A stretch of 59,541 nucleotides of DNA, taken from contig CAVJFW010000004.1 in the NCBI GenBank assembly GCA_963648975.1, forward strand, positions 1-59,541. Reading direction: 5' to 3'. Positions 17,672 to 54,863 of the stretch are shown piece by piece. The position numbers and the translations under genes are program-made. Numbering within the stretch: the stretch's first letter is position 1; each line of letters opens with the position of its first letter. The DNA is from a bacterium (lineage in GTDB: Bacteria; Bacillota_I; Bacilli_A; RFN20; CAG-288). A model generated the notes under the pieces. The model saw only the letters and a program-made list of their open reading frames with translations. It searched no databases and was not told where the DNA came from.

Positions 17672-18721
17672 TCATTCAGTGTAATTCTTTGGATTTGCAA
17701 CCATGGAATAGACATTACTCATGGTGAGGTAAAGAAGGATTTCCATCTCTGACCATACCTTTTCGACTCCTGATTCCACGAGTATGAGATTTCCTTCTTT
17801 GTCCTTCGTCCTGAATATGATGAAGGAACGTGTCTTTCGTCTTTCCATCAGAGCGAGGATTTTCTTTTCATAGTCATCATCTTTCTTCAGAAGGGAAAAA
17901 TAATTGACATGGTATGTTTCTTCCCTGTTGAACCTGTATTCGTCTTTCTTCAGGCATGGAAGTCCACTTATCTTGGCCTGGGGATCCTGATAGAGCAGGA
18001 CAGGTGCATCAGATGTTATCAAATAGATTGATTTTGCCGAATAGTAGTTACCCAGCATATGACTCACCATGGACAAGGCTTTGGCTGTATCATGGATACG
18101 GAACATCTCGAAAATATAGTCGACAAGACCATGGACGTTCAGACTTGATTTTCTTTGTGCGACATTGATGTCTCCATGAAGGTTTCGGTTATAGATGATG
18201 AAACAGTTCTTTCCCTTCATCTTCCCTCTGAAAAGAGCCTTCTCGGAATTCTTCAGAAGTCCTTCAAAATCAGGGGCATCTATCGGATGACGGGTGATAC
18301 CCATCGTCAAGGTGACTGGATATGGCTTTGCATCGGTTGTGAGATATCCCAAATTGAGATGTCTGATGGATTCTGAAATATCTCTTGCGATGTTCCATAC
18401 ATCCTCATATGTTGCGATGTTGGGAACGATGACGACGAATTCATCTCCACCATAACGGAAAAGAACGCCTTTTTGTCCGATGACGTTTTCAATTCCGGTT
18501 GCAATGTCCTTCAAAAGTGTTTCGGAGGCAGTGATACCTTTTGTTTCACTGACACTCTCGAAGTTGTCGATATCGATGAAATACATGGAAAAGATGCCAC
18601 CGTTCTCGATAAGGAAATCTGCATATTTCTTCAGATAATCCTTATTGACGGCATTCGTCAGGGAATCATATACATGTTCCTTGTTGTGAGTGGAGAAGAA
18701 TTGGCTTTCTTTTAGTTTCAT
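17672..18721 (-). CDS. GGDEF-domain protein, paralog of 11696-12763, with variant base-recognition residues
   Basis: FIDIDNFESVSETKGITASETLL and RYGGDEFVV motifs, then ALFRGKMKGKNCF. Start chosen at ATG 18721 (MKLKESQ...) by alignment with the paralog. The ORF could extend to 18835. Confidence 0.8.
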   Translation of the reverse strand: MKLKESQFFSTHNKEHVYDSLTNAVNKDYLKKYADFLIENGGIFSMYFIDIDNFESVSETKGITASETLLKDIATGIENVIGQKGVLFRYGGDEFVVIVPNIATYEDVWNIARDISESIRHLNLGYLTTDAKPYPVTLTMGITRHPIDAPDFEGLLKNSEKALFRGKMKGKNCFIIYNRNLHGDINVAQRKSSLNVHGLVDYIFEMFRIHDTAKALSMVSHMLGNYYSAKSIYLITSDAPVLLYQDPQAKISGLPCLKKDEYRFNREETYHVNYFSLLKKDDDYEKKILALMERRKTRSFIIFRTKDKEGNLILVESGVEKVWSEMEILLYLTMSNVYSMVANPKNYTE

Positions 18722-18887
18722 CGGTGAATTCCTAATGCAATATTGTACGATAAGTTTGATTGAGAATGTATTTATTTCCTTCTTTTTACCTTGATTGAAA
18801 TGTTTTTTGTCTTCGAAAAACAAAAAATAGAGCATAATTCACGTTTTGTTTCTTTCCAGGAATCACGATTTTTGATAAACTAAGAAC

Positions 18888-29990: not shown

Positions 29991-30001
29991 TTTGTTCTCC
30001 T

Positions 30002-31339
30002 CTAGTCCATATACATCCAAAGTGTGTCAAACGGATCTGTTTCAAGTAATGGTGCATTGTCGTATTTCTCGAGAAGTTTTTCGGAAAGATATTTTCTGTT
30101 CACATAGATCTCATAGACATATTCCTCGAACCATTTGTCAGACATGACGAAGAATCCGTTCTTTCCGTTTTCCTTTCCCCAGGAATTTTCCACCTTCCAG
30201 CGGTTAGGCTTTTTGTTGACAAGATTGACACCGGTGAAGGTCATGGCATGATTGCAGAAGGAAGCTCTGTAGCTGAGTCTTTCCTTTTTGTTCAGATGAT
30301 AATCGATGTCAAAAAGTTCCTTTCTCATCAATATGCCATCGGCAAGTATGCCATCCTTTCTCAGGGACTGGGTGGAGACATCGGCACCAAACCAGACTGG
30401 CATGTTGTCCTTGAGAGAATCGATACAGGCTTTCTTCATCTCCGAGAGAGAGACATCGAAGAAGATGACAGGTGATCCGTCGATGACATTGTTGACCAGG
30501 GAACAGGTGTATTTTGTGTATTTCTCATGTCCTTCAAGTGGTCCATTGCAGAGTGGAACATAAGCTTCAAGATCCTCGGCGATATATTTGTCGTAGAATT
30601 CCTTTGGAGTGAGTCTGCCGAGACTGACATATTTGTTGTCCTTGTCAACATATTCATATTCGAAATCCTTGACCGGTGTGCCTAAGGAAATGGTAAGAAT
30701 ACGATAAATGTCGCTGAGATACTGCTTCTTTATCTTGTAGAGGTCCTTTTCTGACTTTCCTTTGGCTTTTGCGTTCCTTAGTTCGATCATGCCCTGAGCA
30801 AGATAGTTTGTAAGGACGCTGTTGAGCTCTGCCGTATCGACGCTTACGGCAAGGTCTGGCATTTCCGATAGCGGAACGACACCATATTTTTTCACGAGAT
30901 TGCTGAACATGACGAAATGTCCGCCATCACCCAAGGCGGAGTCAAGGATGAAGACATTGTTTCTGCTTCTGGAATCCTCAGAAGAGAGTTCCATCGCCTT
31001 TTCAAGGAAGAAATTGCTCTTTTCCAGTTTGTCATAGAACTGAAGATATGCCTGTGAAAGCTCTATGTTCTTCACATTGAGCTTTTTGAAGAGGATGGTT
31101 CTGATGACGTTGAGACCGGAGAACATCCAGCATCTTCCGCTTCTCTTCTGATTGCAGACCTCTCCGGCGTCGACATCGACGCTGAAGGTGAATTTCATCT
31201 CCCTGAGAAGATCCTTGTCGATACAGGAAGCGTTGATTCCGTTATTGGTGACGGAGGACTTCCTCAGAATGTAATCTGGATTGCTTCTGAAATCCTTTTC
31301 AAAGGATTCCAAATCAGATGAATTGATTTTCGTATTCAT
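30002..31339 (-). CDS. pepC: Aminopeptidase C paralog
   Basis: QKRSGRCWMFSG, NHAMTFTGV and ENSWG. The catalytic triad is intact. Confidence 0.9.
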   Translation of the reverse strand: MNTKINSSDLESFEKDFRSNPDYILRKSSVTNNGINASCIDKDLLREMKFTFSVDVDAGEVCNQKRSGRCWMFSGLNVIRTILFKKLNVKNIELSQAYLQFYDKLEKSNFFLEKAMELSSEDSRSRNNVFILDSALGDGGHFVMFSNLVKKYGVVPLSEMPDLAVSVDTAELNSVLTNYLAQGMIELRNAKAKGKSEKDLYKIKKQYLSDIYRILTISLGTPVKDFEYEYVDKDNKYVSLGRLTPKEFYDKYIAEDLEAYVPLCNGPLEGHEKYTKYTCSLVNNVIDGSPVIFFDVSLSEMKKACIDSLKDNMPVWFGADVSTQSLRKDGILADGILMRKELFDIDYHLNKKERLSYRASFCNHAMTFTGVNLVNKKPNRWKVENSWGKENGKNGFFVMSDKWFEEYVYEIYVNRKYLSEKLLEKYDNAPLLETDPFDTLWMYMD

Positions 31340-39111: not shown

Positions 39112-40947
39112 ATGGCAGAAAAGATCAAGAAAGATTTCCAGGAACTGAAAAAACTTGACAAGGAATCCCTCAGGGTCCTTGCAAGTGACATCAGGGCAGA
39201 CATTCTCTCTGCCTGTCTTTCCAATGGCGGACATCTTTCGAGCAATCTCGGTGTCGTCGAACTCACGCTTTCCATGATGAAATGCTTTCCACCGGATCAG
39301 AACGACATCCTCTTTGATGTCGGACATCAGTCCTATACCTACAAAATCATGACGGGAAGGGATATTTCCAACATCAGAAAGACGGATGGCGTCTCACCCT
39401 TCAACCTCCGTGAGGAAAGCATCTATGACGTCTATTCTAACGGCCATGCCGGAGATGGCATCTCCACCGCATATGGTATTGCAAAGGCCAAGGAACTTTG
39501 CCATGAAGAATCCTATACCTTGGTCGTCGTCGGTGACGCATCCATTGAAAATGGCATATCATTTGAGGCTATCGACCAGATTGCCGGGAAACACGAACCA
39601 AAGCGTCTCATCATCATCCTCAATGACAATGGAATGGCAATCAGCAGGAACAACGGCCCATTGAGCAGAAAATTTGCCCATCTAAGGAATTCCCGCTTCT
39701 ATTTCAGGACTTCCTCCTTTTTGGGAAGAAAGATGTCCAAGCACAAATTGACCTGGAAGATATTCCTCAAGATGCGTTCATTGAAGGACCATCTCAAGGG
39801 GATGGTCCTGAAACCGACCATCTTCGAGGCCATGGGAATCAAATATATCGGTCCCTATGACGGACATGATTTCGATTCATTGGATCTGGCTTTCGAAAAA
39901 GCGAAGGTTCTTTCACAAAAACAGCCTGTCATTGTCCATTTCCTTACAAGGAAAGGCTTCGGCTATCCAGAGGCGATGAAGGATGAGAAAGGTGACTTCC
40001 ATGGTGTAAGAAAGGATTTTGACCAGAAATCCTATGCTCCGAACCAACAGTTCACATCTATCAAGCAGTCGCTGCTTTATGGACCGATGAAGGAAGATGA
40101 AAAGATGGTGGTCATCACTCCTGCCATGGAAAAAGGAAGCGGCCTTGAAAAACTGTTTGCAGATTTCCCATCCAGATGCATAGATACCGGCATCAGCGAA
40201 GAACATGCCATGGTTCTTGCCAGTGGACTTGCCTTACGTGGATATCATCCTGTCCTGGACATCTATTCCACCTTCTTGCAGAGAACATATGATGAAATCA
40301 TCGAGAATGTATCCAGAAACGATGTTTCCGTCATGGTGCTTGTCGAAAGAGCTGGCCTGGTCGGTGAGGATGGTTCATCCCATCAGGGCATATATGATGT
40401 TGGAATGATTTCCAACATTCCTCACTGCAGATGCCTGATGCCTTTTGATGCGATGAGCGTGAAATATCTTTTCGATATGGTCAAGGAAAACAGGCATGGT
40501 CCCTTCTTCATCCGTTTTCCAAAAGGCAATCCTAATTTTGACGTTCCAAGTCATACGATCGAGAACGGCTTTGCGTTCTTCAGGAAATTCAACAACAGAA
40601 AACTTGTCCTAGGCATATCCGTCATGGGATTTGATCTCATAAAGAAAATGCCTGAAGACTATGACACGGCCATCATGGTCGATCTTCTTCCGGAGGATGC
40701 TCTCCTCAACACGCTGAATCTCAACCATTATGATGAAATCTATCTTTATGATGCCTATTCCACCATGGATGGGAGTGTCAGACATCTTGAAAGCTATCTC
40801 GTAAGACATCATTATCAAGGAAAATTCCATTCATTTGCGTTTGAAAGAAAGTTCATCGGCTTTGGCCAGGTAAAGGACTTACTTGAAAGAGAAGGCATGG
40901 ACGTCGACTCCGTCTATGACAAGATCATCGGAGGTGATAAGAAATGA
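39112..40947 (+). CDS. dxs: 1-deoxy-D-xylulose-5-phosphate synthase (somewhat divergent)
   Basis: GGHLSSNLGVVELT, DVGHQSY, ILNDNGMAIS, and IYSTFLQRTYDEI ... GEDGSSHQG. The usual GDG is GDA here. Confidence 0.88.
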   Translation: MAEKIKKDFQELKKLDKESLRVLASDIRADILSACLSNGGHLSSNLGVVELTLSMMKCFPPDQNDILFDVGHQSYTYKIMTGRDISNIRKTDGVSPFNLREESIYDVYSNGHAGDGISTAYGIAKAKELCHEESYTLVVVGDASIENGISFEAIDQIAGKHEPKRLIIILNDNGMAISRNNGPLSRKFAHLRNSRFYFRTSSFLGRKMSKHKLTWKIFLKMRSLKDHLKGMVLKPTIFEAMGIKYIGPYDGHDFDSLDLAFEKAKVLSQKQPVIVHFLTRKGFGYPEAMKDEKGDFHGVRKDFDQKSYAPNQQFTSIKQSLLYGPMKEDEKMVVITPAMEKGSGLEKLFADFPSRCIDTGISEEHAMVLASGLALRGYHPVLDIYSTFLQRTYDEIIENVSRNDVSVMVLVERAGLVGEDGSSHQGIYDVGMISNIPHCRCLMPFDAMSVKYLFDMVKENRHGPFFIRFPKGNPNFDVPSHTIENGFAFFRKFNNRKLVLGISVMGFDLIKKMPEDYDTAIMVDLLPEDALLNTLNLNHYDEIYLYDAYSTMDGSVRHLESYLVRHHYQGKFHSFAFERKFIGFGQVKDLLEREGMDVDSVYDKIIGGDKK

Positions 40948-42599
40948 TTCAGGAATTACATATCCACAATCTCGCCGTCATCGAAGATGCCACATTGGAA
41001 TTCTCATCCAGGGATACGGCTCTTGTCGGTGAAACCGGTGCGGGTAAATCTCTCGTTGTCAATTCCCTCATGCTTCTGATGGGTAACAGAAGCGATTTTT
41101 CCCTTGTCAGGGATAGTCAGAAGAAGGCTTATGTATCTGCCTTGTTTCAAATCGAGGAAGGCTTTCTACAAAATCATGCTGAACTGAAGGATTATGTAAA
41201 TGAAGATAAAACCCTGTTGATCAAGAGAGTCCTCAACAGTGACAAGACATCGAGATATTATCTCAATGATGAACAGGTCACCGCAAATGAGCTTAGGGAA
41301 GTGACCTCTCATCTTATCGATATCCATTCACAGAATGCCAAATCCGATCTTCTTGATGAGACAAAGCAGATAAGATATCTCGACATGTCATCGGAAGAAA
41401 TCCTCTCTGCTCTTCAGGATTACAGGAAAGCATATTACGAATATACGGAAACAAAAAATCAGCTTTCCCAGCTGGTATCCTCCCATAAGGAATATGACAG
41501 GGAATACCTCGAATTCCAGATCAAGGAAATCGAAAAATATCATCTTTCGGAAAATGAAATCGAAGAACTCAACGCCGAATATCTTTCCCTCAGGGATCAG
41601 GACAGACTGAAAGAAAAATATATGTCCTTCAAGACGACGGTTTCCTCTTCTTCCCTATCCCTGAATGAAATGCTTTCCCAGGCCAGCCATCAGCTGAAAG
41701 GTCTGTTTGACACCTCGTTGGATGAAAAGGCAAAGAGAGTTTATTCTGAAATTCTTTCGCTTCAGGAATCTCTTAACGACATTGATTATGAATTTGAATC
41801 AAAATCCATTGATCCAAAGCGCATTGATGACATCAACGAAAGACTCTTTTCCCTGAAGGGCCTGATGAGAAAATATGGTAAGACGACCAAGGAGATTCTG
41901 ACAAAATATGATTCCTTCAGGAAGACACTTTCCCAAATGGACTCCTATGAAGAGAATGTCAAAGACCTTGAAACTGAAATCGAAAGGAAAAAGGCTTCGG
42001 CCATGAAGAAGGCTGAAATTCTTTCCTCTCTCAGACAGAATCAGGCACTTGTCCTTTCCAAGAACATTCAGGACGAGATGGAATCTCTTGGGCTTAGGAA
42101 AGGTGGCTTCAGAATCGATGTAGAAAAGAAGGATGAATTAAGTGAAAATGGAATCGACCACGTGACATTCAAGGTTTCACTCAATGCCGGACTTTCTGAA
42201 CAGCCTCTATCCAAGGCAGCCAGTGGCGGTGAGGCCAGCAGACTCATGCTTGCCCTGAAAATCGTCCTTAACCGAATTGATCCCTATGATCTCATGGTTC
42301 TTGATGAAATCGATACCGGAATTTCCGGAAAGGCTTCATTCCTTGTGGCCAAGAAGATAAGACAGCTTTCAAGGGAAAGCTCCCTTATCATCATATCCCA
42401 TATTCCACAAGTCGTCTCAAGCTGTGATACATCCATCCAGATTGAGAAGAAGACGGACGGAAAAAATACCTTCACAACAGCAAAATCACTTGACGAAAAA
42501 GAAACCATTCGCTTTGTTGCCGCTATGATTTCCCTCGACAAGGTGACTGACAATGCCCTCAGCCAGGCTCAGGAACTGTATTCAGAATTCCATAAATGA
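40944..42599 (+). CDS. recN: DNA repair protein RecN
   Basis: Walker A GETGAGKS, coiled-coil middle, SGGEASR signature, VLDEID. Confidence 0.93.
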   Translation: MIQELHIHNLAVIEDATLEFSSRDTALVGETGAGKSLVVNSLMLLMGNRSDFSLVRDSQKKAYVSALFQIEEGFLQNHAELKDYVNEDKTLLIKRVLNSDKTSRYYLNDEQVTANELREVTSHLIDIHSQNAKSDLLDETKQIRYLDMSSEEILSALQDYRKAYYEYTETKNQLSQLVSSHKEYDREYLEFQIKEIEKYHLSENEIEELNAEYLSLRDQDRLKEKYMSFKTTVSSSSLSLNEMLSQASHQLKGLFDTSLDEKAKRVYSEILSLQESLNDIDYEFESKSIDPKRIDDINERLFSLKGLMRKYGKTTKEILTKYDSFRKTLSQMDSYEENVKDLETEIERKKASAMKKAEILSSLRQNQALVLSKNIQDEMESLGLRKGGFRIDVEKKDELSENGIDHVTFKVSLNAGLSEQPLSKAASGGEASRLMLALKIVLNRIDPYDLMVLDEIDTGISGKASFLVAKKIRQLSRESSLIIISHIPQVVSSCDTSIQIEKKTDGKNTFTTAKSLDEKETIRFVAAMISLDKVTDNALSQAQELYSEFHK

Positions 42600-43720
42600 A
42601 AAGAATCGCCCATATTGACCTCAACGCCTTTTTCTGTCAGTGCGAGATACTTAAGAATCCCAGCCTCAAAGGCAAGGCGATTGCGGTCGGCTCCATTCAG
42701 CGTAGGGGTGTCATCTCCACATCCAGCTATGAGGCAAGGAAAAAGGGAGTTCATTCAGCATTGCCGACTTCCATTGCCCGGTCAAGATGTCCCGAATTGA
42801 TTCTAATCGATGGAAATTATTCCCTCTATCAGAAATATTCCAACATGTTCTTTTCGTACCTGGAGAGCCGGTTTCCGATATTGGAAAAGGCATCCATCGA
42901 TGAATGCTATATCGACATGACCAAGGAAATGATGGATGTTGGAGATGAGGAAGCCTATCTTTTTGACTTGCAGATGGAAATATTCCATAAGACAAGGCTG
43001 AAGTGTTCCATCGGACTATCCTATAACCGTTTTCTTGCCAAGATGGCATCCGACATGAAAAAGCCGCTTGGACTGACAATCATCCAAAAGGAAGACATTC
43101 CAAGGATGATTCATCCGCTTCCCATCGACAAATTCTTCGGAATCGGAAAGAAGACCACCCCACAGCTAATCGATGCTGGAATAACGACAATCGGAGATCT
43201 TGCCAGAAGCGATGATGACAATGTCAGAAAAATCCTTGGATCATCCTTTGATTATTTCAGGAATGAGGCTAACGGCATTGCCTCTGACATCGTGGACAAT
43301 TCCGCATTTGACCCAAAAAGCATATCGGCGGAACGTACTTTTCCTGATGACGTGACGGATTATGATGAAGCCATGAACATGATCAGGAAATGCGTCGATG
43401 AAGTCTGTGCTGACCTGAAAAAGCATCAGAAGCTCTGTGAATGTCTCTCCCTGAAGCTCAGGGACAATCATTTCGTGACAAGAAGCAAGCGAATCTCACT
43501 TGCTCAACCGACCATGGATTCCTCCATCCTTTTTACCTATGCGATGAGAATCTTTGATGAGTTCTACAAAGATGAACCGCTTCGCCTCATCGGAGTATCC
43601 GCTGAAAAGGTTCTCAATGCCATGGAAAAGAAAAAGGACGAGACGGATAAGCTCATCAGGGAGATAAATCAAAATCTTACGTTTGGTGGTAAAATCATCA
43701 AGGGAGAAGACTTAGGATGA
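42596..43720 (+). CDS. dinB: DNA polymerase IV
   Basis: [14 protein letters not shown] and [11 protein letters not shown]-family motifs. Confidence 0.93.
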
Positions 43721-44592
43721 AAATCTCTTTGGAAGTCGAGGAATTTCTGACCTACCTGATCACGGAAAAGGGAGACAGCCTCAAGACCATCGAATGTTAT
43801 AAAAAGGACCTGAAGGAATTTTCTGATTATCTTTCGGATAAGGACTGTTCCTTGCTGAGCAATGATGACATGAATGATTTCCTGTCCTTTCTCAAGGAAA
43901 AAGGGATGAAGAACAATTCCTTGATAAGAAAATCCATGTCGGTGAAAGGATTTTATTCCTTTCTGAAAAGAGAAGGCATCATAACAGTTGCCTTAAGCGA
44001 TCTTGTAACTCCGAAAAAAGAAGGAAAACTCCCTGACATCCTTTCCATGGATGAGATGGAAAGACTTCTCGGAATGATGGACTTGTCAACAGCAAAAGGG
44101 CAGTTGGACCATGCCATGGTACTCATCTGTTTCAGCTGTGGTTTACGTGTCAGTGAACTCGTAAACCTCAGAATTGACCAAATCAACACCAAAAACGGCT
44201 ATCTGAGGGTCTCGGGCAAGAGAAACAGGCAAAGACTCATACCCATATCAAAAGATGCCCTAGAGGGCATGAATCAATATGTCTTGGCTGTCAGGGATAA
44301 ATCCCATACGAAAAGTCCATGTCTCTTTGTACACGAAAACGGCAAGGAAGTCTCAAGGCAGTACTTTTTTCTCGAACTGAAGAAATATGTGAAGATGGCA
44401 GGAATCAACAAGAACGTCTCACCACATACGTTGAGACATAGCTATGCATCGATTCTGCTTGAGAATGGTGCTCAGCTTAGGACGATTCAGGAACTTCTCG
44501 GCCACCAGGATATCTCCACGACACAGATTTATACGCATATATCCAAGAAGAAGGAGCAGGAAGAATACGATCAGGCGATGAGACGGAAATAA
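43717..44592 (+). CDS. xerD: Tyrosine recombinase XerD-like
   Basis: [31 protein letters not shown] catalytic motifs. The position upstream of deoB matches my recollection of Bacillus ripX-drm. Confidence 0.85.
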
Positions 44593-44611: not shown

Positions 44612-45823
44612 ATGAAATTCAAAAGAATATTTGCGATTGTCATGGATTCCGTCGGAATCGGAAGTGAACCCGATGCCGACAGATTTTACAATGACGGACA
44701 TACGGATGAAGGAAGCAACACATGGCTTCACATCTCCGAGAAGATGGATGGATTCCATATACCGACAATCAACAGCCTAGGCATACATGACCTTTGTGAT
44801 GTCGTATCCTCAAGTGAGGTCAGCCATCCTAACAGCTACATCATGACCATGAGGGAAAAATCCATGGGTAAGGATACTCTTACCGGACATTGGGAGATGA
44901 TGGGCATAGAAACAAAAGAACCGCTTGTCACATTTACGGAGCATGGATTTCCTCAGGAACTGATTGACGAGCTGGAAAGAAGAAGCGGAGTTTCGTTCAT
45001 TGGAAACTACTCCTCAAGTGGTACCGTCATCCTTGATGAACTAGGTGAACAGTCAATCAGGGAAAAGAAGATGATTCTCTATACGTCCGCTGATTCCGTC
45101 CTTCAGATTGCTGCCAACATGGATGTGTTCTCCCTGGAGAAACTTTACGAGACATGTCTCATCGCCAGGGAAATCACAATGAAGAAGGAATGGAAGGTTG
45201 GAAGAGTCATCGCCAGACCTTTTGTGGGGACTGAAAAAGGACATTTCACAAGAACGACGGACAGAAGGGATTATTCCGTCAAGCCAGAAGGAAAGACTGA
45301 CATGATGGATCTTGTCGACAACGGATATAAAGTCTATGCCATCGGAAAGATTCATGACATTTTTGCTGGAAGCGGAATGACATCCAGCGAACATATAGAT
45401 TCAAATCATGATGGCATGATGAAGACCCTGAATGTCATAAGGAATGAAGAATTCACAGGTTTGTGTTTTGTCAATTTGGCTGATTTTGATGTACTCTATG
45501 GACATAGGAGGAATCCTATCGGATATGGAAAGTGCATCGAAGAGTTCGATGCCGATCTGAAGTTATTGATTGATTCCCTCAGGGAAGACGACCTTCTTAT
45601 GATTACGGCTGACCATGGAAATGATCCGACCTGGTATGGGACTGATCATACCAGGGAAAAGGTACCTCTCTTCTGCTACAGCAAGTCCTACCATAACGGA
45701 AGGATGCTTGAGGAAAGAGATACATTTGCTGACATGGGCATGACCATTATGAAGAACTTCAATGTTGAGTCTTCAAATGAAAAAATCATCGGAAAATCAA
45801 TCGATGAACTGTTAAATGACTAA
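44612..45823 (+). CDS. deoB: Phosphopentomutase
   Basis: IVMDSVGIG, TGHWEMMG and ADHGNDPT motifs. Confidence 0.93.
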   Translation: MKFKRIFAIVMDSVGIGSEPDADRFYNDGHTDEGSNTWLHISEKMDGFHIPTINSLGIHDLCDVVSSSEVSHPNSYIMTMREKSMGKDTLTGHWEMMGIETKEPLVTFTEHGFPQELIDELERRSGVSFIGNYSSSGTVILDELGEQSIREKKMILYTSADSVLQIAANMDVFSLEKLYETCLIAREITMKKEWKVGRVIARPFVGTEKGHFTRTTDRRDYSVKPEGKTDMMDLVDNGYKVYAIGKIHDIFAGSGMTSSEHIDSNHDGMMKTLNVIRNEEFTGLCFVNLADFDVLYGHRRNPIGYGKCIEEFDADLKLLIDSLREDDLLMITADHGNDPTWYGTDHTREKVPLFCYSKSYHNGRMLEERDTFADMGMTIMKNFNVESSNEKIIGKSIDELLND

Positions 45824-45824
45824 A

Positions 45825-45841
45825 TAGTATTTATTTAGTAC
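45825..45841 (+). repeat. Left copy of the 17-nt direct repeat TAGTATTTATTTAGTAC
   Basis: 16/17 identical to 46216-46232. Begins 1 nt after the deoB stop. Degenerate copy (13/17) at 45895-45911. Confidence 0.85.
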
Positions 45842-45846
45842 TAAAT
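45833..45846. repeat. Perfect 14-bp palindrome ATTTAGTACTAAAT
   Basis: Read directly from the sequence. Shares the 10-bp core TTAGTACTAA with 45905-45914. Confidence 0.85.
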
Positions 45847-45876
45847 TGCAACTACTAAGTGTGGTTGCAATTTTTT
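45846..45876 (+). terminator. Intrinsic terminator of deoB
   Basis: TTGCAAC-11 nt-GTTGCAA followed by T6. Confidence 0.75.
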
Positions 45877-45903
45877 AGTGATCAATTTAATTACTAGTTA
45901 TTT

Positions 45904-45915
45904 ATTAGTACTAAT
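45904..45915. repeat. Perfect 12-bp palindrome ATTAGTACTAAT
   Basis: Read directly from the sequence. Lies 70 bp from the first palindrome. Confidence 0.85.
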
Positions 45916-45965
45916 TATAAACTAACTTCTTAAAAGATACTACTAACTTAATTTTTCGATTTATT

Positions 45966-45993
45966 TATTAACATAATAAACATTATACGAATA
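45966..45993 (-). other. Candidate dif (XerC/XerD) site
   Basis: The minus strand reads TATTCGTATAA-TGTTTA-TTATGTTAATA. This matches recalled E. coli dif (GGTGCGCATAA-TGTATA-TTATGTTAAAT) at 21/28, with 9/11 in the XerD arm. It matches B. subtilis dif (ACTTCCTAGAA-TATATA-TTATGTAAACT) at 19/28. Confidence 0.35.
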
Positions 45994-46064
45994 AACCTCT
46001 TTCATAATAAAAAATAGACTTATCTGGATATTCAAAACCAAACAAGCCTATATCCTTCTATAAA

Positions 46065-46083
46065 ACTACTAAATTACTACTAA
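46065..46083 (+). repeat. Tandem ACTACTAA units with 11-nt period (reverse orientation of the TAGTA half-sites)
   Basis: ACTACTAA at 46065-46072 and 46076-46083. A related TACTACTAA is at 45938-45946. Confidence 0.8.
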
Positions 46084-46215
46084 TTCCAAATCGATTCATA
46101 GATGATATTATGAGTATCTCTATTTATCTTACTGAGATTTAAACTTTAGTACTTTATTGGTACTAATAATATACTAGTAACTCTGATATATCAAATTTTA
46201 ATATGCTAGTCTATT

Positions 46216-46232
46216 TAGTATTTCTTTAGTAC
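46216..46232 (+). repeat. Right copy of the 17-nt direct repeat TAGTATTTCTTTAGTAC
   Basis: Ends 3 nt before the mtnN stop codon. Degenerate copy (13/17) at 46147-46163. Confidence 0.85.
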
Positions 46233-46235
46233 CAT

Positions 46236-46925
46236 TTATCTACTATATCTATTTACAATATACTTCACGACCTCTGCGGCACGATGAGATGCCATATCGA
46301 GATTATCTTCGTATTGATTCTTGTTTCCGTCATCATTGCTTGCATCATCGGAGATGGATCGTATGATGACAAAAGGAACCTTTGACAGATAAGAGACTTG
46401 AGCCACTGCAGCAGATTCCATGTCGACGGCAACTGGTTCATCAAACTTGTTGAATACATCCATATTGACGTTTTCCTTCGTCATGAAGGAATCACCGGAT
46501 AGTATCAGTCCATTGGCAATGCCTTTGACTTCGGATTGATTGGCAACATCAATTGCCTTTCTGTCGCATTCGAAATACAAAGGACATTGACACATCTGAC
46601 CATAGGAATATCCGAATGCAGTGACATCCACATCATGATAAGCACATTTTTGGGCAATCAATGTCGAAAAAGGTTTTAGTCTACCTTCTATGGTACCTGC
46701 AACTCCAACATTGATTACCAGGTCGAAATGATGTCTTTCCAACATTCTTCCCAACTGATATGCCATCGATACCTTGCCGATTCCACCGATCATGGAATAG
46801 ACTTCGTCTTTGGATTCATGAAGCGAGAAGTGAGTGACACCATCTTTGATGTCCATCTTCTCATCGAAGAGAGAAAGGAAAGCATCCTGTTCTTCCTTCA
46901 TCGCACAGACAACAAGATAAGTCAT
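46236..46925 (-). CDS. mtnN: 5'-methylthioadenosine/S-adenosylhomocysteine nucleosidase
   Basis: VVCAMKEE, GIGKVSMA, DMESAAVAQV and IRSISD motifs. Confidence 0.92.
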   Translation of the reverse strand: MTYLVVCAMKEEQDAFLSLFDEKMDIKDGVTHFSLHESKDEVYSMIGGIGKVSMAYQLGRMLERHHFDLVINVGVAGTIEGRLKPFSTLIAQKCAYHDVDVTAFGYSYGQMCQCPLYFECDRKAIDVANQSEVKGIANGLILSGDSFMTKENVNMDVFNKFDEPVAVDMESAAVAQVSYLSKVPFVIIRSISDDASNDDGNKNQYEDNLDMASHRAAEVVKYIVNRYSR

Positions 46926-50191: not shown

Positions 50192-52801
50192 TCACTTCTT
50201 TGAGCTGTCTCTTTCAAACAAATCAAAGAGGGAAAGCTGAGTATCGGCATCATCGACGTTGGCTTTTGTTGTCTCTGTCTTGGCTGCACGTGGCTCTTCG
50301 ACGACATAATCCTCGTTGATTACTTCACCAATATCATCAAAGCCGATGAGGTCGTTCTTGCCGAGATTCGGAATGTTCTCCCTCATTTCCGAATTTGGTT
50401 CCACAGGTGTAAGGTCATTGATATCCATGGCAACCATGGAGTCGAGTGTTGTGACACAGACATAATTGGCCTGACCTCTGATCTTCTCTGCCTTGGAAAC
50501 ATTGACAATCTTCCAAGGATTCTTCTTCAGGATCTTCACAAGTGGAGTCTTGGCTGAAAGTCTCTCTGTACAATCTATCTTTGTTGAGGAGATGAGTCTT
50601 GCAGCCCTCTTGCTGCCAAGAACGAGAAGCAGGCAGACTTCCTTGGAATGCAATGAAATAAGGGATTTCAAAGGTGCGTTCTCAATGCCGGAGGCGATTG
50701 CCTTGACACCCATGGCTGAGGTGGAGACAAGCGGGACATCACTCTCATTGAATCTTGAGCAGCGTCCAAGCTCATCGACAACGATGAGATCGGAATTTCC
50801 ACCGCTGATTACAACATCCGTAAGTCTGTCATCCTTGTTGAGCATTTTACAGGCCCTGAGAGGCTTCTTGGTGAGTGATGCCTGTTCAAAATCCTTCAAA
50901 GGTGTTCTCTTGATCTTGTTTTCCTTTGTCAGAAGGCAGACATTGAGTCCTTCCTTGAAGGCTTCGATTTCAAAAGCCTTTATGATCTTTTCATTTGGCT
51001 GAAGCTTTGTGAGATTATTCAGGTGTTTTCCTTCTTCCTTCCATTTCATGTCGCTCAGCATATGGCATGGAACATAGGCATAATTGCCTAAGGAAGTGAA
51101 GAGAAGGAGAGAGGAATGAGTGCTGACCTGTCTTGAGAAGACAAGGCGGTCTCCCGTCTTCATCTTGGTGAGGGTCAATGGATCGCTTGCATCCTTGTTT
51201 GCCTTCACGCTTGCCTGATAGGACTTAAGGGAAGTTCTCTTGGCATAGCCATCATAGGTGATGGCAACCATGACATCTTCCTTGGCAATGAGCTTTGTCG
51301 GATCGACACTGGCAAAGGACAACTTGGAATCCAGGATTTCCGTCTTGCGGTTGACGGAGAAATCCTTTCTGACCTCGCTGAGGGTCTTGACGATAGTATC
51401 GTCAAGCTTTGATTCATCGGCAAGAATGCCGTTGATTCTTACGACATCCGCATCCAACTGGCTCTTTTCTTCCCTCAGGGCAAGAATGTCGGTATTGGAA
51501 AGACGATATAAAGGCATCATGGCGATGGCTTCTGCCTGTCTTTCGCTGAAGCCATAGTCATTCTTCAGCATCGTCTTGACGCCTTCCTTTCCATTGCATT
51601 TCCTGATCTTGTCGATGAGTTCGTTAAGGATGGAATAGGCCTTGATATAGCCTTCGATGATCTCAAGTCTGTCTTTGTCAGTCTTAAGATCGAACTGGAA
51701 TGCCTTGGTGGAAACGATTCTCTGATGGGATACGAACGCATCGATGAGTTCCATCAGCGACATGCACTTTGGGTGACCTTTGTCGATGGCAAGGAAATTA
51801 CAGGAGATTGTCGTCCTCAATGCACCTTTGCTCATCAGGTAATTGTAGATGTCATATGGAGAGGCGCCATCCTTGATCTTGATGACGATCTTTACATCAT
51901 CCTTAGCGGATTCATCGATGATTTCCTCGATGTTATCAAGTTTTTCAAGGTCTTTTCTCTTGTTGAGGCTGGCGACAAAATCGATTTTGACGACACCATA
52001 AGGGATTTCGGTGATGATGATGGCATTTTCTCCTTCATCGATATGGGACTTGCAGTACAAATAGAAGTTTGCTCTTCCAGTCTCATACAGAGTATGGAGG
52101 ATTTCCTTGTCATCGATGACGCCACCGGTTGGGAAATCCGGGCCTTTCACATAATTCATCAGGTCATCAAGATTGGCCTTCTTATGCTTGATTCTGTAAA
52201 TCGTGGCATCGATGACTTCACTGAGGTTATGAGGTGGAATGTTCGTTGAGGAGCCTACGGCAATGCCACTCGTACCATTGACGAGAAGGTTAGGATATCT
52301 TGCAGGAAGGACAGTCGGCTCAAGTCTCTTGTCATCGAATGTCGGAACCATCTTGACTGTATCCTTGTCGATGTCCTTTACCAGGAATTCACTGAGCTTG
52401 GAAAGTCTTGCCTCGGTATAACGGTATGCAGCAGCCGGATCATCATCGATGGATCCGTTGTTTCCCTGGAAGTCAACCAGCGGAGCTTCCATCTTCCATG
52501 TCTGGGAAAGATGTACCAAGGCATCATAGATGGAGGAATCTCCATGTGGATGATAATGACCCATGATGTTACCGACGATGGTAGCACATTTGATTGTAGG
52601 CTTGCTATATACCATGCCCTGATCGAACATGGAGAAGATGATACGTCTCTGGACGGGCTTCAGACCATCCCTGGCATCAGGTATGGCTCTGTCTGTGATG
52701 ACTTCCTTGGCATAGCGGTTGAAGGCTCCGACAAGGACATCGCTAAGTGGAGATTCAACGATGTTTTCGGTATATTTGACGATATCTTTCTTATTTTTCA
52801 T
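50192..52801 (-). CDS. parC: DNA topoisomerase IV subunit A
   Basis: GLKPVQRRI and active-site AAAYRYTE. No GyrA-box (QRRGGKG) seen. Follows parE, with plsY adjacent as in Bacillus. Confidence 0.9.
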
Positions 52802-54728
52802 TTCTCTCTACCTCCGATGTGAAGCTATCGGTCGTATTGAAGTCGATGTTGTTCTCAATCCAGTCTTTTCTTCTTTCGGAATCCTTGCCTAAGAAGATAT
52901 TGACCTTGTCATGGGAATCTTCGTCATCGACGATGTTGACCTTGAGAAGTTTTCTGTGTTCGATGTCCATCGTGGTGGAAGAAAGCTGAGAATAATTCAT
53001 CTCACCAAGACCTTTGTAACGGTTGACCTTGTATCCAGCACCGATCTTCTTCTGTGCTTCGGCAAGTTCAGTGTCATCATAGCAATAGATCTCCTTGCCT
53101 TTTCCGTTATAGACACGATAAAGCGGTGGACAGGCGATATAAAGATGTCCTGTCTCGATAAGTGGTTTCATATGATTGTAGAAGAAGGTGAGAAGGAGGG
53201 ATTGGATATGACTTCCGTCATCATCGGCATCGGTCATGATGATGACTTTCCCATAGTGGATGTTCTTGATGTTGAAGTCCTGGTTGAAACCGGCACCGAT
53301 TGTGGAAATGAGTGTGGCAATCTCAAGGTTACCAAGAAGTGCCTTTTCATCCTCGACGTCGGTTGTGTTCTTAGGTTTGCCCCTGAGTGGAAGAATGGCC
53401 TGATGCTGTGGGTTTCTCCCCTTCTTTGCGGAACCGCCTGCGGAATCACCTTCGACGATGAAGAGTTCATTCTGCATATAATCCTTGCTTGAGCAAGGTG
53501 TCAGCTTCTTGGAGATTTCAACCCCGGACATCTTGTTGTTGGCAAGTTCCCTTTCCTTCTTCCTGTCGGCTTCCGTCTTGTCACGGATTCTCATCTCTTC
53601 GACCGTCTTGCGGACGACGTTTTCAGCCTCATCCTTATGCTCTTCAAGGTAATAGGCAAGTTGTCCTTCAACGATGGAATCCACACTGTTCAGTGCTTCC
53701 TTGGTGCCAAGTTTTCCTTTTGTCTGACCTTCGAACTGAAGGAGATGCTCCGGAACCCAGCAGGAAAGAATGGCGACAAGTCCTTCTCTGAGGCAATCAC
53801 CATCCAATGTCTGAGATGCTCTCACAAGATTATGGTTGGCCGCATACTGGTTATATATGCTTGTCAGAGCCTTCTTCAGACCAGTGACATGATATCCTCC
53901 GTCACCGGTCCTGACACCGTTGGCGAAAGAGATGATTTTCTCGTTATAGTCGTTCTTGAGGAATCCAAAGACAACTTCAAGACGGATACCGTTGTCGACC
54001 CCTTCGAATCTCATCGGTTTGGTAAGAAGTTCCTTGTCGACGGTATGACGATTGAAATATTCCCTGAGTCCATCCTGATAGAAGAAATCCTGTTTTCTTC
54101 CGGTTCTTTCATCTGCGAGATGGAAAGTGACGCCTTTGGTAAGGCAGGCCTGATCATCGAGATGGCTTGCAATTCTGTCAAAATTGAAGGTTATATCCTC
54201 AAAGATTGTGGCATCAGGAAAGAATCTTACATCAGTTCCTCTTTTTGTGGTATTGCCCAATTCCTTGATACCGGAAAACTTACTTCCGCCTTCCTCGAAT
54301 CTGGCGAAGTGATCGATTCCGTCACGGTAGGAATGGACTTCCATCCAGGAAGAAAGGGCATTGGTGACCGAGGCACCGACACCATGCAAGCCACCGGCGG
54401 ACTTGTAGTTGCTTTCATCGAACTTTCCGCCACCATGCAATGTCTGATATACAATCTGGAAACCATTCATGTTTTCCTTTTCGTTATAGTCACATGGCAC
54501 GCCTCTTCCCTGATCCTCGACTTCCAGGGAACCATCAGAATGAATTGTGATGAAAATATGTTTGCCATGTCCCTCGTTTGCCTCATCGACGGCGTTGTCG
54601 ACGATTTCCCAGACAAGGTGATGAAGACCGAGCGTGGATGTCGAACCGATATACATGCCAGGTCTTTCCCTGACAGGTTCAAGGCCATGGAGAATGGCTA
54701 ATGAAGAAGCATTATAATTAGATCCCAT
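52791..54728 (-). CDS. parE: DNA topoisomerase IV subunit B
   Basis: Start at ATG 54728 (MGSNYNASS...). RPGMYIG, GGLHGVG, EGDSAGGS and PLRGK motifs. Confidence 0.92.
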   Translation of the reverse strand: MGSNYNASSLAILHGLEPVRERPGMYIGSTSTLGLHHLVWEIVDNAVDEANEGHGKHIFITIHSDGSLEVEDQGRGVPCDYNEKENMNGFQIVYQTLHGGGKFDESNYKSAGGLHGVGASVTNALSSWMEVHSYRDGIDHFARFEEGGSKFSGIKELGNTTKRGTDVRFFPDATIFEDITFNFDRIASHLDDQACLTKGVTFHLADERTGRKQDFFYQDGLREYFNRHTVDKELLTKPMRFEGVDNGIRLEVVFGFLKNDYNEKIISFANGVRTGDGGYHVTGLKKALTSIYNQYAANHNLVRASQTLDGDCLREGLVAILSCWVPEHLLQFEGQTKGKLGTKEALNSVDSIVEGQLAYYLEEHKDEAENVVRKTVEEMRIRDKTEADRKKERELANNKMSGVEISKKLTPCSSKDYMQNELFIVEGDSAGGSAKKGRNPQHQAILPLRGKPKNTTDVEDEKALLGNLEIATLISTIGAGFNQDFNIKNIHYGKVIIMTDADDDGSHIQSLLLTFFYNHMKPLIETGHLYIACPPLYRVYNGKGKEIYCYDDTELAEAQKKIGAGYKVNRYKGLGEMNYSQLSSTTMDIEHRKLLKVNIVDDEDSHDKVNIFLGKDSERRKDWIENNIDFNTTDSFTSEVERNEK

Positions 54729-54863
54729 ATAAAAAACCTCATGCAATGATTTTACCGATAAACAGCCAAAAAATAAAGCGTTTTAGCCCATTTGGGTGAA
54801 ATACTTTTCAGCAGTAGCACACATGATATTGTCACTTGTAAAACCGCATTCCTTCATAAACTC

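Follow-up and report, generated by a model that had tools for sequence, protein, structure and literature searches.

A candidate chromosomal dif site set in a conserved array of 30-bp palindromic units, putative protein sites, in a lineage of uncultured Bacilli

Described terminus systems and the locus analysed

To our knowledge, the known chromosomal dif sites are described as not requiring flanking accessory sites, and the dif of B. subtilis is located outside the TerI-TerII interval. Enterobacteria that use a Tus fork trap have dif inside the interval bounded by their innermost Ter sites (PMC10331603, PMC3317982), a placement that one of these sources emphasizes for fork traps in general (PMC10331603), and for species with neither Tus nor RTP a further termination mechanism near dif remains possible (PMC3317982). 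The Ter site of B. subtilis (consensus KMACTAANWNNWCTATGTACYAAATNTTC; PMC3317982) measures 29/30 bp and is bound by four RTP monomers (PMC10331603, PMC3317982). Homologues of RTP formed 88 clusters, all at least 45% identical, and each homologue with a named source came from Bacillaceae.

Palindromic sites near dif are also known from the MatP/matS organisation of the enterobacterial Ter macrodomain, in which a bridging protein keeps the terminus in place up to division; the 23 matS sites are distributed over about 800 kb, and we know of no MatP in Bacillota. For the plasmid sites cer and psi, ArgR, PepA and ArcA are placed on accessory DNA that adjoins the XerCD core, and in parC of plasmid R1 two sets of 11-bp iterons flank the core. 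The accessory-protein precedent of cer and psi is set out in a preprint (bioRxiv 10.64898/2026.02.23.706985). The winged helix of Rok prefers the pentamers AACTA and TACTA, and Rok homologues have been reported in Bacillus species only (PMC6212790); another source describes Rok as an oligomeric, bridging or looping protein (PMC9757077).

The stretch of DNA analysed here (59.5 kb; hereafter, the window) contains a 412-nt spacer (45824-46235) between converging deoB-like and mtnN-like ORFs. As a preliminary description of this DNA had claimed, the spacer holds no ORF of 60 aa or more (the sole ORF of at least 25 aa is 26 aa long) and is strongly A+T-rich (GC 0.22, as compared to 0.43 for the window). 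The flanking genes matched the NCBIfam models for phosphopentomutase (505.7 bits; cut-off 256) and MTA/SAH nucleosidase (140 bits; cut-off 73.8), the latter gene closing a minus-strand operon with the order yqeG-like, yqeH, nadD-HD fusion, rsfS and mtnN. The nearby tyrosine recombinase gene showed XerD as its best NCBIfam match (290.7 bits, under the strict cut-off of 329.6), and its pairing with deoB is kept in almost all related loci in which that flank is covered; no second Xer gene was found in the 59.5-kb window.

Only one ordinary terminator, that of deoB, had been recognized in the preliminary description, whereas we found two, i.e., T1 for the deoB operon and, on the minus strand, T2 for the mtnN operon (Table 1). 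The T1 region (45824-45885) folds at -19.9 kcal/mol (z = -4.2) and T1 overlaps, and thereby interrupts, the right half of the repeat unit L1; the T2 region (46000-46070, minus strand) folds at -22.1 kcal/mol (z = -5.4). As T2 ends the mtnN operon so close to dif, the right-hand repeat units sit in the mtnN 3' UTR. T1 was not picked up by a terminator consensus scan, and a promoter-like match at 46194-46166 (minus strand) was not taken as real (2 such matches as compared to 4.9 expected).

Table 1. Features of the deoB-mtnN spacer and its flanks (window coordinates)
Feature	Position	Strand	Remarks
xerD-like tyrosine recombinase gene	43717..44592	+	Pfam Phage_integrase and SAM-like N domain; 1.4 kb from dif
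deoB (phosphopentomutase)	44612..45823	+	Final gene of plus-strand operon running toward the spacer
Unit L1	45825..45854		TAGTA-TTTATT-TAGTACTA-AATTGC-AACTA; 17/18; begins 1 nt past deoB stop
T1, intrinsic terminator of deoB operon	45844..45877	+	12-bp stem, 5-nt loop, T-run
Unit L2	45895..45924		TAGTT-ATTTAT-TAGTACTA-ATTATA-AACTA; 16/18
Additional overlapping pentamer elements	45938..45946		TACTACTAA; between L2 and dif
dif	45966..45993	-	28 bp, spacer centre; minus strand: TATTCGTATAA-TGTTTA-TTATGTTAATA
T2, mtnN-operon terminator	46009..46051 (approx.)	-	Hairpin and U-tract; ends 16 nt from dif
R1, degenerate unit	46065..46085		ACTACTAAATTACTACTAATT
Unit R2	46147..46176		TAGTA-CTTTAT-TGGTACTA-ATAATA-TACTA; 17/18
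Unit R3	46216..46245		TAGTA-TTTCTT-TAGTACCA-TTTATC-TACTA; 17/18
mtnN (MTA/SAH nucleosidase)	46236..46925	-	Final gene of minus-strand operon

Palindromic units, dif and their conservation

The repeat in the spacer is a 30-bp palindromic unit, TAGTA-N6-TAGTACTA-N6-TACTA, which is present in four good copies and one degenerate copy; each unit combines four (T/A)ACTA-type pentamers, with elements of the same orientation 11 bp apart. Units matching at least 16 of the 18 consensus positions start only at 45825, 45895, 46147 and 46216 in the 59.5 kb (shuffle mean, 0.002). The 17-nt direct repeats that had been described at the two spacer ends are present (TAGTATTTMTTTAGTAC, exact at 45825 and 46216 on the plus strand), but they are really the left halves of 30-bp palindromes; their degenerate copies (13/17) at 45895 and 46147 and all perfect palindromes listed in the preliminary description were found again. 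A scan of the window for TAGTATTTMTTTAGTAC with up to 3 mismatches yielded 5 matches, every one in the spacer, as compared to 0.10 expected. R2 includes a 19-bp dyad (TAGTAC-N7-GTACTA), R3 covers the mtnN stop codon and final codons, reaching 10 nt into mtnN, and R1 is orthologous to a conserved TACTAAtTTAGTACTAAttcc block of the relatives, with the central TAGTACTA here turned into TACTACTA.

The spacer contains 18 of the 39 TAGTA/TACTA pentamers of the window (4.4 per 100 nt), and density is much lower in every other intergenic region (at most 1.25 per 100 nt), a comparison that the preliminary description had suggested. Dinucleotide shuffles of 45824-46245 gave 5.7 +/- 2.1 such pentamers, as compared to 19 observed. 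All 7 copies of TTAGTAC/GTACTAA in the window (1.56 expected over the whole window) and all 4 copies of ACTACTAA also fall in the spacer; the 11-nt step between the ACTACTAA copies at 46065 and 46076, noticed earlier, was confirmed. Pairs of the form TAGTA-N6-TAGTA, as well as units, are absent elsewhere in the 59.5-kb window and in the approx. 20 kb inspected per locus of the window's clade.

Complementarity between the N6 spacers of a unit was 2.47 of 6 positions, as compared to 2.56 of 6 for permuted partners. This lack of complementarity argues for protein recognition of duplex DNA over an RNA or a cruciform. The units of an arm did not share an 11-bp register (resultant lengths were similar for periods of 10 to 12). 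Unit spacing showed mirror symmetry about a single axis in the window (2 of 2 pairs; P = 0.036) and in loci L012 (3 of 3 pairs; P = 0.004) and L015 (3 of 3 pairs; P = 0.008), P values that overstate independence as the loci share phylogeny; such symmetry was not seen in L002-L004, L010, L017, L026, L027 and L036.

Judging from its sequence, the spacer centre is the chromosomal dif, i.e., a candidate dimer-resolution site, single copy in the window, where the preliminary description had placed no dif. It is made up of an XerC-type arm (TATTCGTATAA), a 6-nt centre (TGTTTA) and an XerD-type arm (TTATGTTAATA), and represents the best-conserved block in the whole spacer. A position weight matrix (PWM) derived from the sites of 33 relatives scored it at 34.8, the sole match above 12 in the window, while the same matrix scored the E. 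coli and B. subtilis dif sites at 28.7 and 27.3, respectively; the consensus of the relatives' sites is identical to each of these two experimentally defined sequences (PMC3025954) at 21 of 28 positions. Another dif-like sequence, located at 141-170 of the window, scored below 12 and was taken as a chance match. The site follows the plan of chromosomal dif (28 bp, with two 11-bp arms, an inner ATAA/TTAT dyad and a 6-bp centre) and likewise occurs as a single copy at the skew switch of converging replichores, with an Xer gene present. It differs from known dif sites in lying 1.4 kb from xerD with conserved 30-bp palindromes arrayed symmetrically around it, and our search of the literature on the motif and on arrays flanking dif returned nothing like this array around a chromosomal dif.

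In 27 of 32 loci, GC skew is positive before the orthologous site and negative after it (mean +0.075 and -0.071, respectively). The window's own GC skew is flat at dif (0.012 and 0.009); its AT skew switches there (+0.11 to -0.10), and the coding strand of the genes flips as well. As skew changes sign at dif in the skewed relatives, the site therefore represents the replication terminus, and the earlier suggestion of a replication-termination or segregation locus holds in substance. Beyond approx. 450 nt from dif, TAGTA and TACTA showed no strand skew of the KOPS/SRS type (185 and 206 on the left, 180 and 169 on the right).

The order xerD-deoB, units, dif, units, mtnN recurs in approx. 25 related uncultured Bacilli from gut and rumen (approx. 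20 kb inspected per locus, i.e., approx. 400 kb in the window's clade, and 59.5 kb for the present genome). In approx. 25 loci, with deoB identities ranging from 82% to 57%, hot spots of 13 to 19 TAGTA/TACTA per 400 nt surround dif. The related loci hold 62 units with an exact centre and symmetric arms. At a threshold of at least 15 of 18 positions, 85 units were found in 21 loci (44 to the left and 41 to the right of dif), none of them between -50 and +55 of the dif centre, and unit numbers on the two sides were equal in 11 of the 18 loci examined. The preliminary description had also called for a check of conservation: in four relatives, identity to the window base was 0.82 for the elements and 0.92 for dif as compared to 0.42 for the remaining DNA, so that elements and dif are conserved and the intervening DNA is not. 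Distances from units to the dif core differ by lineage (-49 to -93 on the left, +55 to +114 on the right) and show no helical phasing, which argues against a precisely built synaptic complex.

An exact-unit scan of metagenome and viral contigs returned, among the matches listed, sequences that are for the most part unrelated (satellites of 11 bp, iterons and very AT-rich DNA devoid of ORFs); the relatives among these listed matches (L099, L124, L126, L140, L142 and L187) all matched at the dif-spacer locus, and each of the six listed matches that carry deoB or mtnN represents this locus. Two possum-gut contigs start or stop within the array, and the locus may therefore tend to break assemblies. 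The frequency of TACTA, examined for a genome-wide depletion that an abundant binder might cause, was uninformative: among the clade's pentamers composed of four A/T and one G/C none is rarer, but TACTA also ranks 3-4 of 80 in control lineages that have no array, and its observed/expected ratio is 0.97 (order-3 Markov model).

In a sister clade, the repeats are mirror-polar about dif, with TAGTA direct repeats on the left and TACTA on the right, and further co-oriented arrays occur at -7.3 kb, -5.3 kb and +3 kb from dif. The sister-clade arrays are located in operon spacers (xseB/recN, xseB/dxs, dinB/xerD and upstream of a yqeG-like operon), without exception in the sense orientation of the local transcript; their polarity agrees with the direction of transcription and also with that of replication. 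The distant co-oriented arrays are easier to reconcile with a barrier that senses direction, or with a wider regulon, than with a clamp that acts at dif only.

Alternative explanations for the array

Overall, the data favor an array of protein sites, one of the options raised in the preliminary description, as indicated by the footprint across relatives, the fixed internal geometry of the units and their non-complementary spacers. We consider it probable (approx. 0.9) that the locus comprises dif together with a conserved array of putative protein sites acting in cis at the terminus. We infer protein binding, bridging and function of the array, and several other explanations need to be weighed.

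One possible, though unlikely, explanation is a compact fork trap or pause zone, in which bound units would act as contrahelicase barriers and forks would meet at dif ('dif-stop'), a third independent invention after Tus/Ter and RTP/Ter. Arrays on both flanks of dif at the skew switch would be consistent with such a trap, as would the sister-clade repeats, which are polar and mirrored about dif and whose outer co-oriented arrays resemble nested Ter sites. The location of dif inside the innermost Ter sites of Tus-bearing enterobacteria and the termination mechanism suggested near dif for species without Tus and RTP (see above) point in the same direction. With RTP/Ter, the array has in common the location at the terminus, a site of approx. 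30 bp with room for four protomers (i.e., four protomer-sized elements per 30-bp unit, recalling the 29/30-bp Ter site with its four RTP monomers) and the strings ACTAA and GTACYAAAT.

The resemblance to the RTP/Ter core that the preliminary description had pointed to holds for the 9-mer GTACYAAAT, which is found inside the Ter consensus (PMC3317982), but does not extend to the full consensus: the best match to KMACTAANWNNWCTATGTACYAAATNTTC overlapping the array is mismatched at 7 of 25 specified positions, and the Ter B-site core has no match with up to 2 mismatches in the spacer. Moreover, tblastn detected no RTP homologue (PF02334) in the window or in 1.35 Mb of loci (the RTP query sequence was validated against 1bm9, the Rok query used below against 5zuz), and the named RTP homologues come from Bacillaceae; the B. 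subtilis Ter site was thus rejected as a candidate, with its consensus unmatched and no RTP locally. ACTAA elements are spaced by 11 bp here, as compared to 16 bp in RTP/Ter, and opposed repeat orientation on the two sides of dif is a likeness to RTP/Ter seen in the sister clade only. RTP/Ter sites are A/B-asymmetric, whereas the units of the window's clade are all symmetric (dif-distal and dif-proximal arms differed only slightly, with 4.64 vs. 4.30 and 4.61 vs. 4.46 matches). With symmetric units, a strict barrier would therefore halt both forks outside dif and leave approx. 420 bp unreplicated, so that only leaky pausing fits; the polarity in the sister clade tracks the direction of transcription, too.

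Alternatively, a general nucleoid-associated protein or transcription factor of the Rok or response-regulator type could bind the units, which would simply have accumulated in a large, AT-rich convergent spacer; they would regulate or insulate the 3' ends of the two operons and share the place with dif by coincidence, a reading that we judge quite improbable. The unit follows a layout of 5-mer-N6-5-mer, which is typical of winged-helix response regulators. Its (T/A)ACTA arm elements are identical to the AACTA/TACTA pentamers preferred by Rok (PMC6212790). The sister-clade arrays within operon spacers, sense to the transcript, and the placement of the right-hand units in the mtnN 3' UTR and of L1 in the deoB 3' UTR would also suit a regulator of this type. 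However, Rok targets loosely AT-rich regions rather than phased 30-bp palindromes, it is reported in Bacillus only (PMC6212790), and a search for Rok homologues in the window and the related loci was negative. Units are confined to the dif spacer in the 59.5-kb window and approx. 400 kb of relatives, the convergent genes leave no promoters between them that would need regulation, and the array has balanced sides and a unit-free gap around dif. The array tracks dif and not deoB in the seven loci in which other genes part the two (L008, L010, L015, L018, L020, L026 and L027).

A cer/psi-like role as Xer accessory sequences, where bound proteins would confer selectivity on resolution or substitute for FtsK activation, appears slightly less probable still. 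The likeness consists of putative protein-binding DNA directly adjoining an XerCD core; the array is centred on dif, the core is free and xerD is 1.4 kb away, and cer and psi themselves provide the precedent (bioRxiv 10.64898/2026.02.23.706985). However, the accessory DNA of cer and psi covers approx. 180 bp on one side with a fixed geometry and other motifs, while the units here occupy both sides of the core, not the XerC side alone, at variable and unphased distances. The best spacer matches to the ARG box and the ArcA repeat carry 4 to 5 mismatches, i.e., neither is found in the spacer, the sister-clade arrays lie kilobases from dif, and the XerD of the window is of ordinary length and has no arm-binding domain.

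An element acting at the RNA level, either UAGUA repeats bound by a protein or structured 3' UTRs in the transcripts of deoB and mtnN, is very improbable. L1 and R1 to R3 precede their terminators and hence would be transcribed, and the sister-clade repeats are consistently sense-oriented; L2 and the inner left units of relatives, however, lie past T1, the units are palindromic yet have non-complementary spacers, shuffled sequences fold as well as the L2 region does (z = +0.78), and Rfam 15 gave no match at gathering scores (sub-threshold chance matches only, with E up to 10).

Least probable of all is a decayed mobile element (MITE or IMEX remnant) with terminal repeats filling the gap, an option of the preliminary description prompted by near-identical 17-mers at both spacer ends and compatible with dif sites being known targets of integrative elements, as these 'terminal repeats' are merely two among several palindromic units, the spacer is single-copy within the window (several copies in the genome had been named in the preliminary description as the sign of a MITE-like element), plasmid and phage collections gave no match to it, and all relatives carry the orthologous, dif-bearing spacer with the same architecture wherever the deoB/mtnN gene pair occurs, with the two genes abutting in no genome among them.

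Two further systems share single traits with the array. parC/ParR and iteron arrays resemble it in 11-bp phased short repeats that form two blocks around a functional core, but parC is a plasmid partition locus with a promoter at its centre and an unrelated motif, while the centre here is chromosomal dif. MatP/matS is the nearest match in proposed logic, not in sequence (the best match to the matS palindrome GTGACRNYGTCAC in the spacer region is mismatched at 4 of 12 positions), and the 4 to 6 sites inside 450 bp found here are unlike the dispersed matS sites. Consensus sequences for the SlmA SBS, Noc NBS, parS, E. coli Ter, DnaA box, matS, ARG box and ArcA repeat were all absent from the spacer.

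A putative nucleoprotein bracket around dif

We propose that dif lies in a protein-free gap of roughly 100-250 bp, bracketed on each side by two or three 30-bp units. The duplex units would be occupied by a multivalent protein that recognizes specific DNA sequences and brings at least four DNA-binding domains to each unit, as could be expected of a dimer of dimers or of an oligomer resembling Rok, RTP or TetR. This putative protein would be encoded outside the window: among the window ORFs, DNA-binding domains were found only in the xerD, recN, dinB and topoisomerase IV genes, while the uncharacterised ORFs showed no DNA-binding domain and only weak matches, to membrane-protein families. The bound units would make up a terminus-specific nucleoprotein bracket around dif and, in the mechanism that we favor, would bridge either the left with the right arm on the same duplex or the same arm across sister chromosomes; the mirror-symmetric unit spacing and the mirror polarity in the sister clade give a hint of bridging. 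Bridging would clamp and mark the dif region, keeping it in position for XerCD and for the septal translocase as the cell cycle ends, and as a side effect the complex may hinder forks and transcription entering dif. The logic of such a bracket recalls MatP/matS and the plasmid accessory sequences, although by sequence it belongs with neither. For this clamp or organiser mechanism specifically, we put the chances a little short of even. A wider proposal, in which a dedicated multivalent protein on both arrays forms a clamp that stops or pauses forks at dif and also licenses dimer resolution, is doubtful.

Were a fork-stopping clamp nevertheless true, replication termination would have been solved independently a third time, beside Tus/Ter and RTP/Ter; the 'termination at dif' model, debated for a long time, would gain a physical footing, and an uncultured Bacilli lineage with small genomes would have a new terminus system of its own. 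The array bears on how replication ends in the many bacteria without Tus or RTP and on whether anything acts near dif; a whole lineage keeps a dense, symmetric, footprinted array within approx. 250 bp on either side of dif. For practical purposes, the motif together with dif pinpoints the terminus in metagenome-assembled genomes of this group, and the 30-bp unit provides a short, concrete DNA bait for finding the putative binding protein. An action of the array on forks or on the synapsis of dif would make it a novel type of terminus organiser, present in gut bacteria for which no cultured representative exists.

The dif site and the replication terminus

The spacer between the convergent genes deoB and mtnN has a GC content of 0.22 as compared to 0.43 for the window, and its longest ORF encodes 26 aa; ORF and GC analyses thus bear out the 412-nt AT-rich gap of the preliminary description, and all sequence strings listed there were found in place. 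Conservation in the spacer is highest at 45966-45993, a block that has the classical dif layout and, judged by its sequence, is a canonical dif. A PWM derived from 33 relatives' orthologous sites detected a single site in the window (score 34.8, everything else scoring 12 or less), and gave scores of 28.7 and 27.3 to the dif sites defined by experiment in E. coli and B. subtilis, respectively (reference sequences from PMC3025954). The relatives' dif consensus is identical to each of these two sites at 21 of 28 positions. Taken alone, this dif is one more ordinary representative of a known family. A weak dif-like sequence upstream of the first ORF (AAACATAATAATATTTATGCGTGCC, 141-170) probably arose by chance, because it has a PWM score below 12 and no flanking TAGTA elements. 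A second copy of the dif block and its flank around an N run in L002, the locus of one relative (11375-11410 and 11685-11720), is most likely an artefact of scaffolding, not a true second dif.

With the deoB protein as query, 80 loci were retrieved, and in 36 of them dif follows xerD-deoB in an unchanged orientation. GC skew switched from positive to negative across dif in 27 of 32 loci (10 kb on each side; means of +0.075 and -0.071), with the strongest switches (about +0.2 to -0.2) in four loci; such a switch at an orthologous dif is a terminus signature. The window's own clade shows almost no GC skew; in the window, AT skew (+0.11 and -0.10) and gene orientation both flip at the spacer. A replication-termination locus, one of the options raised initially, is therefore upheld by the dif in the spacer and by the relatives' GC skew, which switches there. 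The loci L003 to L011 and the window, with 42-45% GC, are essentially without GC skew across the terminus and show strand asymmetry only as AT skew tracking gene orientation, while lower-GC relatives show GC skews of +/-0.1 to 0.2.

The neighbourhood of dif is rich in chromosome-maintenance genes, with xseA, xseB, dxs, recN, dinB, xerD and deoB on the left and mtnN, rsfS, nadD, yqeH, a yqeG-like gene and then parC and parE on the right. Genes recN, dinB and xerD occupy 40944-44592, and parC/parE (topoisomerase IV, with plsY adjacent) lie at 50192-54746, 4-9 kb from dif. Elsewhere, the window carries two tandem paralogous Peptidase_C1_2 (PepC-like aminopeptidase) genes (28650-31339, minus strand) and a sugar-type ABC transporter between two GGDEF proteins (11696-18835).

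Features of the deoB-mtnN spacer and extra arrays in loci of relatives
Feature	Coordinates	Strand	Basis or description
deoB, phosphopentomutase, 403 aa	44612-45823	+	NCBIfam 505.7 bits
T1, deoB terminator	45844-45877	+	fold z = -4.2
dif	45966-45993	-	TATTCGTATAA-TGTTTA-TTATGTTAATA; 11-bp arm, 6-bp centre, 11-bp arm
T2, mtnN-operon hairpin and U-tract	~46009-46051	-	fold z = -5.4
Degenerate fifth unit (R1)	46065-46085		orthologous to conserved TACTAAtTTAGTACTAAttcc block of relatives
mtnN, MTA/SAH nucleosidase, 229 aa	46236-46925	-	ORF
Extra TAGTA array	L038:4052-4095
Extra TAGTA array	L039:4067-4115
Extra TAGTA array	L028:5895-5921
Extra TAGTA array	L047:5997-6012
Extra TAGTA array	L042:1356-1371
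Extra TAGTA array	L037:14800-14826
Extra TAGTA array	L034:14790-14805

A palindromic repeat unit on both sides of dif

TAGTA/TACTA pentamers are enriched in the spacer far beyond chance, as are longer motifs containing them. The spacer holds 18 of the window's 39 pentamers (4.4 per 100 nt, as compared to at most 1.25 in every other intergenic region), and 19 were counted in 45824-46245 versus 5.7 +/- 2.1 in dinucleotide-preserving shuffles of the same region. All seven TTAGTAC/GTACTAA heptamers of the window (whole-window expectation, 1.56) and all four ACTACTAA octamers also fall in the spacer. Comparison with relatives identified the repeat as a 30-bp palindrome, TAGTa-N6-TAGTACTA-N6-tACTA; the 17-nt strings previously described as direct repeats are present, but represent only its left part. 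At a cut-off of at least 16 of the 18 specified positions, the 59.5-kb window contains just four such 30-mers, at 45825, 45895, 46147 and 46216 (units L1, L2, R2 and R3, lettered by side of dif), while shuffled spacers yielded a mean of 0.002 units at this cut-off. R3 overlaps the 3' end of mtnN by 10 nt. An alternative reading of the unit is a pair of interdigitated TAGTA-N9-TACTA 19-bp dyads offset by 11 bp, and lone dyads occur too (e.g., TAGTAC-N7-GTACTA within R2). Two terminators are present rather than the single one, for deoB, reported initially; given their positions, R1 to R3 lie in the mtnN 3' UTR and L1 in the deoB 3' UTR. L2 is located past T1.

The relatives closest to the window are uncultured Bacilli from gut and rumen, labelled for instance "uncultured Mollicutes", "Bacilli bacterium" or "Candidatus Enterosoma"; several of the CAV* bin labels clearly cannot be trusted. 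A pentamer hot spot around dif (13-19 per 400 nt) was found in approx. 25 of their loci, spanning deoB identities from 82% down to 57%, and stays with dif where genes intervene between deoB and dif (L008, L010, L015, L018, L020, L026 and L027). The relatives' loci contain 62 units with the exact TAGTACTA centre and symmetric arms. At a cut-off of at least 15 of 18 positions, 85 units were found in 21 loci, 44 to the left and 41 to the right of dif and none from -50 to +55 of its centre; of 18 loci examined, 11 had as many units on the left as on the right. Four relatives aligned with the window matched its bases with an identity of 0.82 for elements (the pentamers making up the units), 0.92 for dif and 0.42 elsewhere, a phylogenetic footprint of conserved elements and dif amid diverged DNA. 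Within a unit, complementarity between the two N6 spacers does not exceed that of randomly paired ones (2.47 of 6 versus 2.56 +/- 0.13); selection therefore acts on four short duplex-DNA elements rather than on a hairpin. In the window's clade, neither units nor TAGTA-N6-TAGTA pairs were found outside the dif spacer (59.5-kb window and approx. 20 kb in each of approx. 20 loci).

Relative to dif, the innermost left units lie at -49 to -93 and the innermost right units at +55 to +114, differing by lineage, with no helical phasing of these distances among lineages and no shared 11-bp register between units. In some genomes, unit spacing is mirror-symmetric about one axis, 7-55 bp right of dif. 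This holds for 3 of 3 pairs in L012 (68, 88 versus 89, 69; P = 0.004) and L015 (48, 83 versus 82, 48; P = 0.008), for both pairs in the window (70 and 69 bp; 45825/45895 versus 46147/46216; P = 0.036) and for 2 of 3 pairs in L007, L009 and L011; the other eight loci tested showed no symmetry. The mirrored values differ from genome to genome, and in L011 and L015 symmetry occurs without sequence similarity of the unit spacers (8 of 24 positions identical, about chance for such AT-rich DNA). Mirrored spacings may reflect either co-varying arms or a retained old inverted duplication.

An exact-pattern metagenome scan gave six lineage-related matches among those listed, all at the same locus. Two possum-gut contigs from one co-assembly (L126:1-500 and L142:7030-7464) start or end within the array, on the deoB side in one case and the mtnN side in the other, and the locus may tend to break assemblies; the retained pieces of these contigs lack a canonical dif. 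Some of the matches listed to the exact 30-bp pattern come from unrelated DNA (L110/L177, L114/L185, L123, L083/L088/L204, L085/L100/L107 and similar), including 11-bp TAGTACTA-N3 satellites and iteron-like arrays. Metagenome loci L083 and L088 and viral contig L204 share a repeat adjoining a short ORF, and some unrelated matches are ORF-free contigs of 16-20% GC with a recurring unit layout.

Direct repeats in a sister clade

Nine loci of a more distant sister clade (L028 to L032, L038, L039, L047 and L048) have 11-bp-phased direct repeats instead of palindromic units, with TAGTA on the left and TACTA on the right, i.e., mirror-polar about dif. Extra co-oriented arrays occur 3-8 kb from dif in operon spacers (xseB|recN, xseB|dxs, dinB|xerD and upstream of a yqeG-like operon). 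These comprise 2-5 TAGTA direct repeats, 11-bp-phased, that begin at or just past stop codons and are always co-oriented with transcription and replication. Perfect DnaA boxes (TGTGGATAA) are found approx. 85-99 nt left of dif in L031, L032, L038, L039 and L048 (two in tandem at L039:11260-11285). Their position, with the TAGTA repeats on one side and dif on the other, and their strand are both conserved, and their density there is 34 times that of the rest of those loci.

Possible functions of the array

Overall, dif at the terminus has a unit-free surround, and the array of four-element palindromes on its two sides is conserved, footprinted and balanced. A multivalent DNA-binding protein contributing four domains per unit probably occupies the units and forms a terminus-specific nucleoprotein bracket. 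This bracket may act as a clamp or organiser in which bound units would bridge the left arm to the right arm, or sister to sister. We assign the clamp reading a probability of roughly 0.45; it fits best because the units are palindromic and equal in number per side, spacing is partially mirror-symmetric, the sister clade shows mirror polarity, and exact distance from dif is indifferent.

The mirror polarity and nested outer arrays of the sister clade would also suit a fork trap or pause, which is nonetheless unlikely in that symmetric units on both sides of dif would give leaky pauses at most. The array is not a B. subtilis Ter site: the suspected likeness extends to GTACYAAAT, which is part of the published consensus KMACTAANWNNWCTATGTACYAAATNTTC (PMC3317982), but not to the full consensus, of which the best array-overlapping match misses 7 of 25 specified positions. 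A search of the window and 1.35 Mb of loci with an RTP sequence validated against PDB 1bm9 found no homologue. RTP has 88 relatives in the database, none less than 45% identical, and all those with a source name are from Bacillaceae.

Sites for a general nucleoid-associated protein or transcription factor appear improbable: the pentamer is Rok-like, as the Rok winged helix favours exactly AACTA and TACTA (PMC6212790), and the sister clade has operon-spacer arrays, but dif specificity is strict in the window's clade. No Rok homologue was found in the window and loci with a query validated against 5zuz. Still less probable are Xer accessory sites of the cer/psi type, given the two-sided, unphased layout. 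An RNA element, with no match to known RNAs, and the remnant of a non-autonomous insertion, proposed initially for a spacer that is single-copy, matches no plasmid or phage and has an orthologue in all relatives, are both very improbable.

No KOPS-like strand skew of the pentamer away from dif was observed, and no matS, ARG box, ArcA repeat, SlmA, Noc, parS, E. coli Ter or DnaA-box consensus was found in the window's spacer. The palindrome array bracketing a chromosomal dif matches no known system tested, and a non-exhaustive search of the searchable literature found no published description of one. We classify the locus as a dif/terminus site with a dedicated flanking site array; that the array represents a new termination or terminus-organising system is doubtful. 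Should the array trap or pause forks, it would answer the question of termination near dif.
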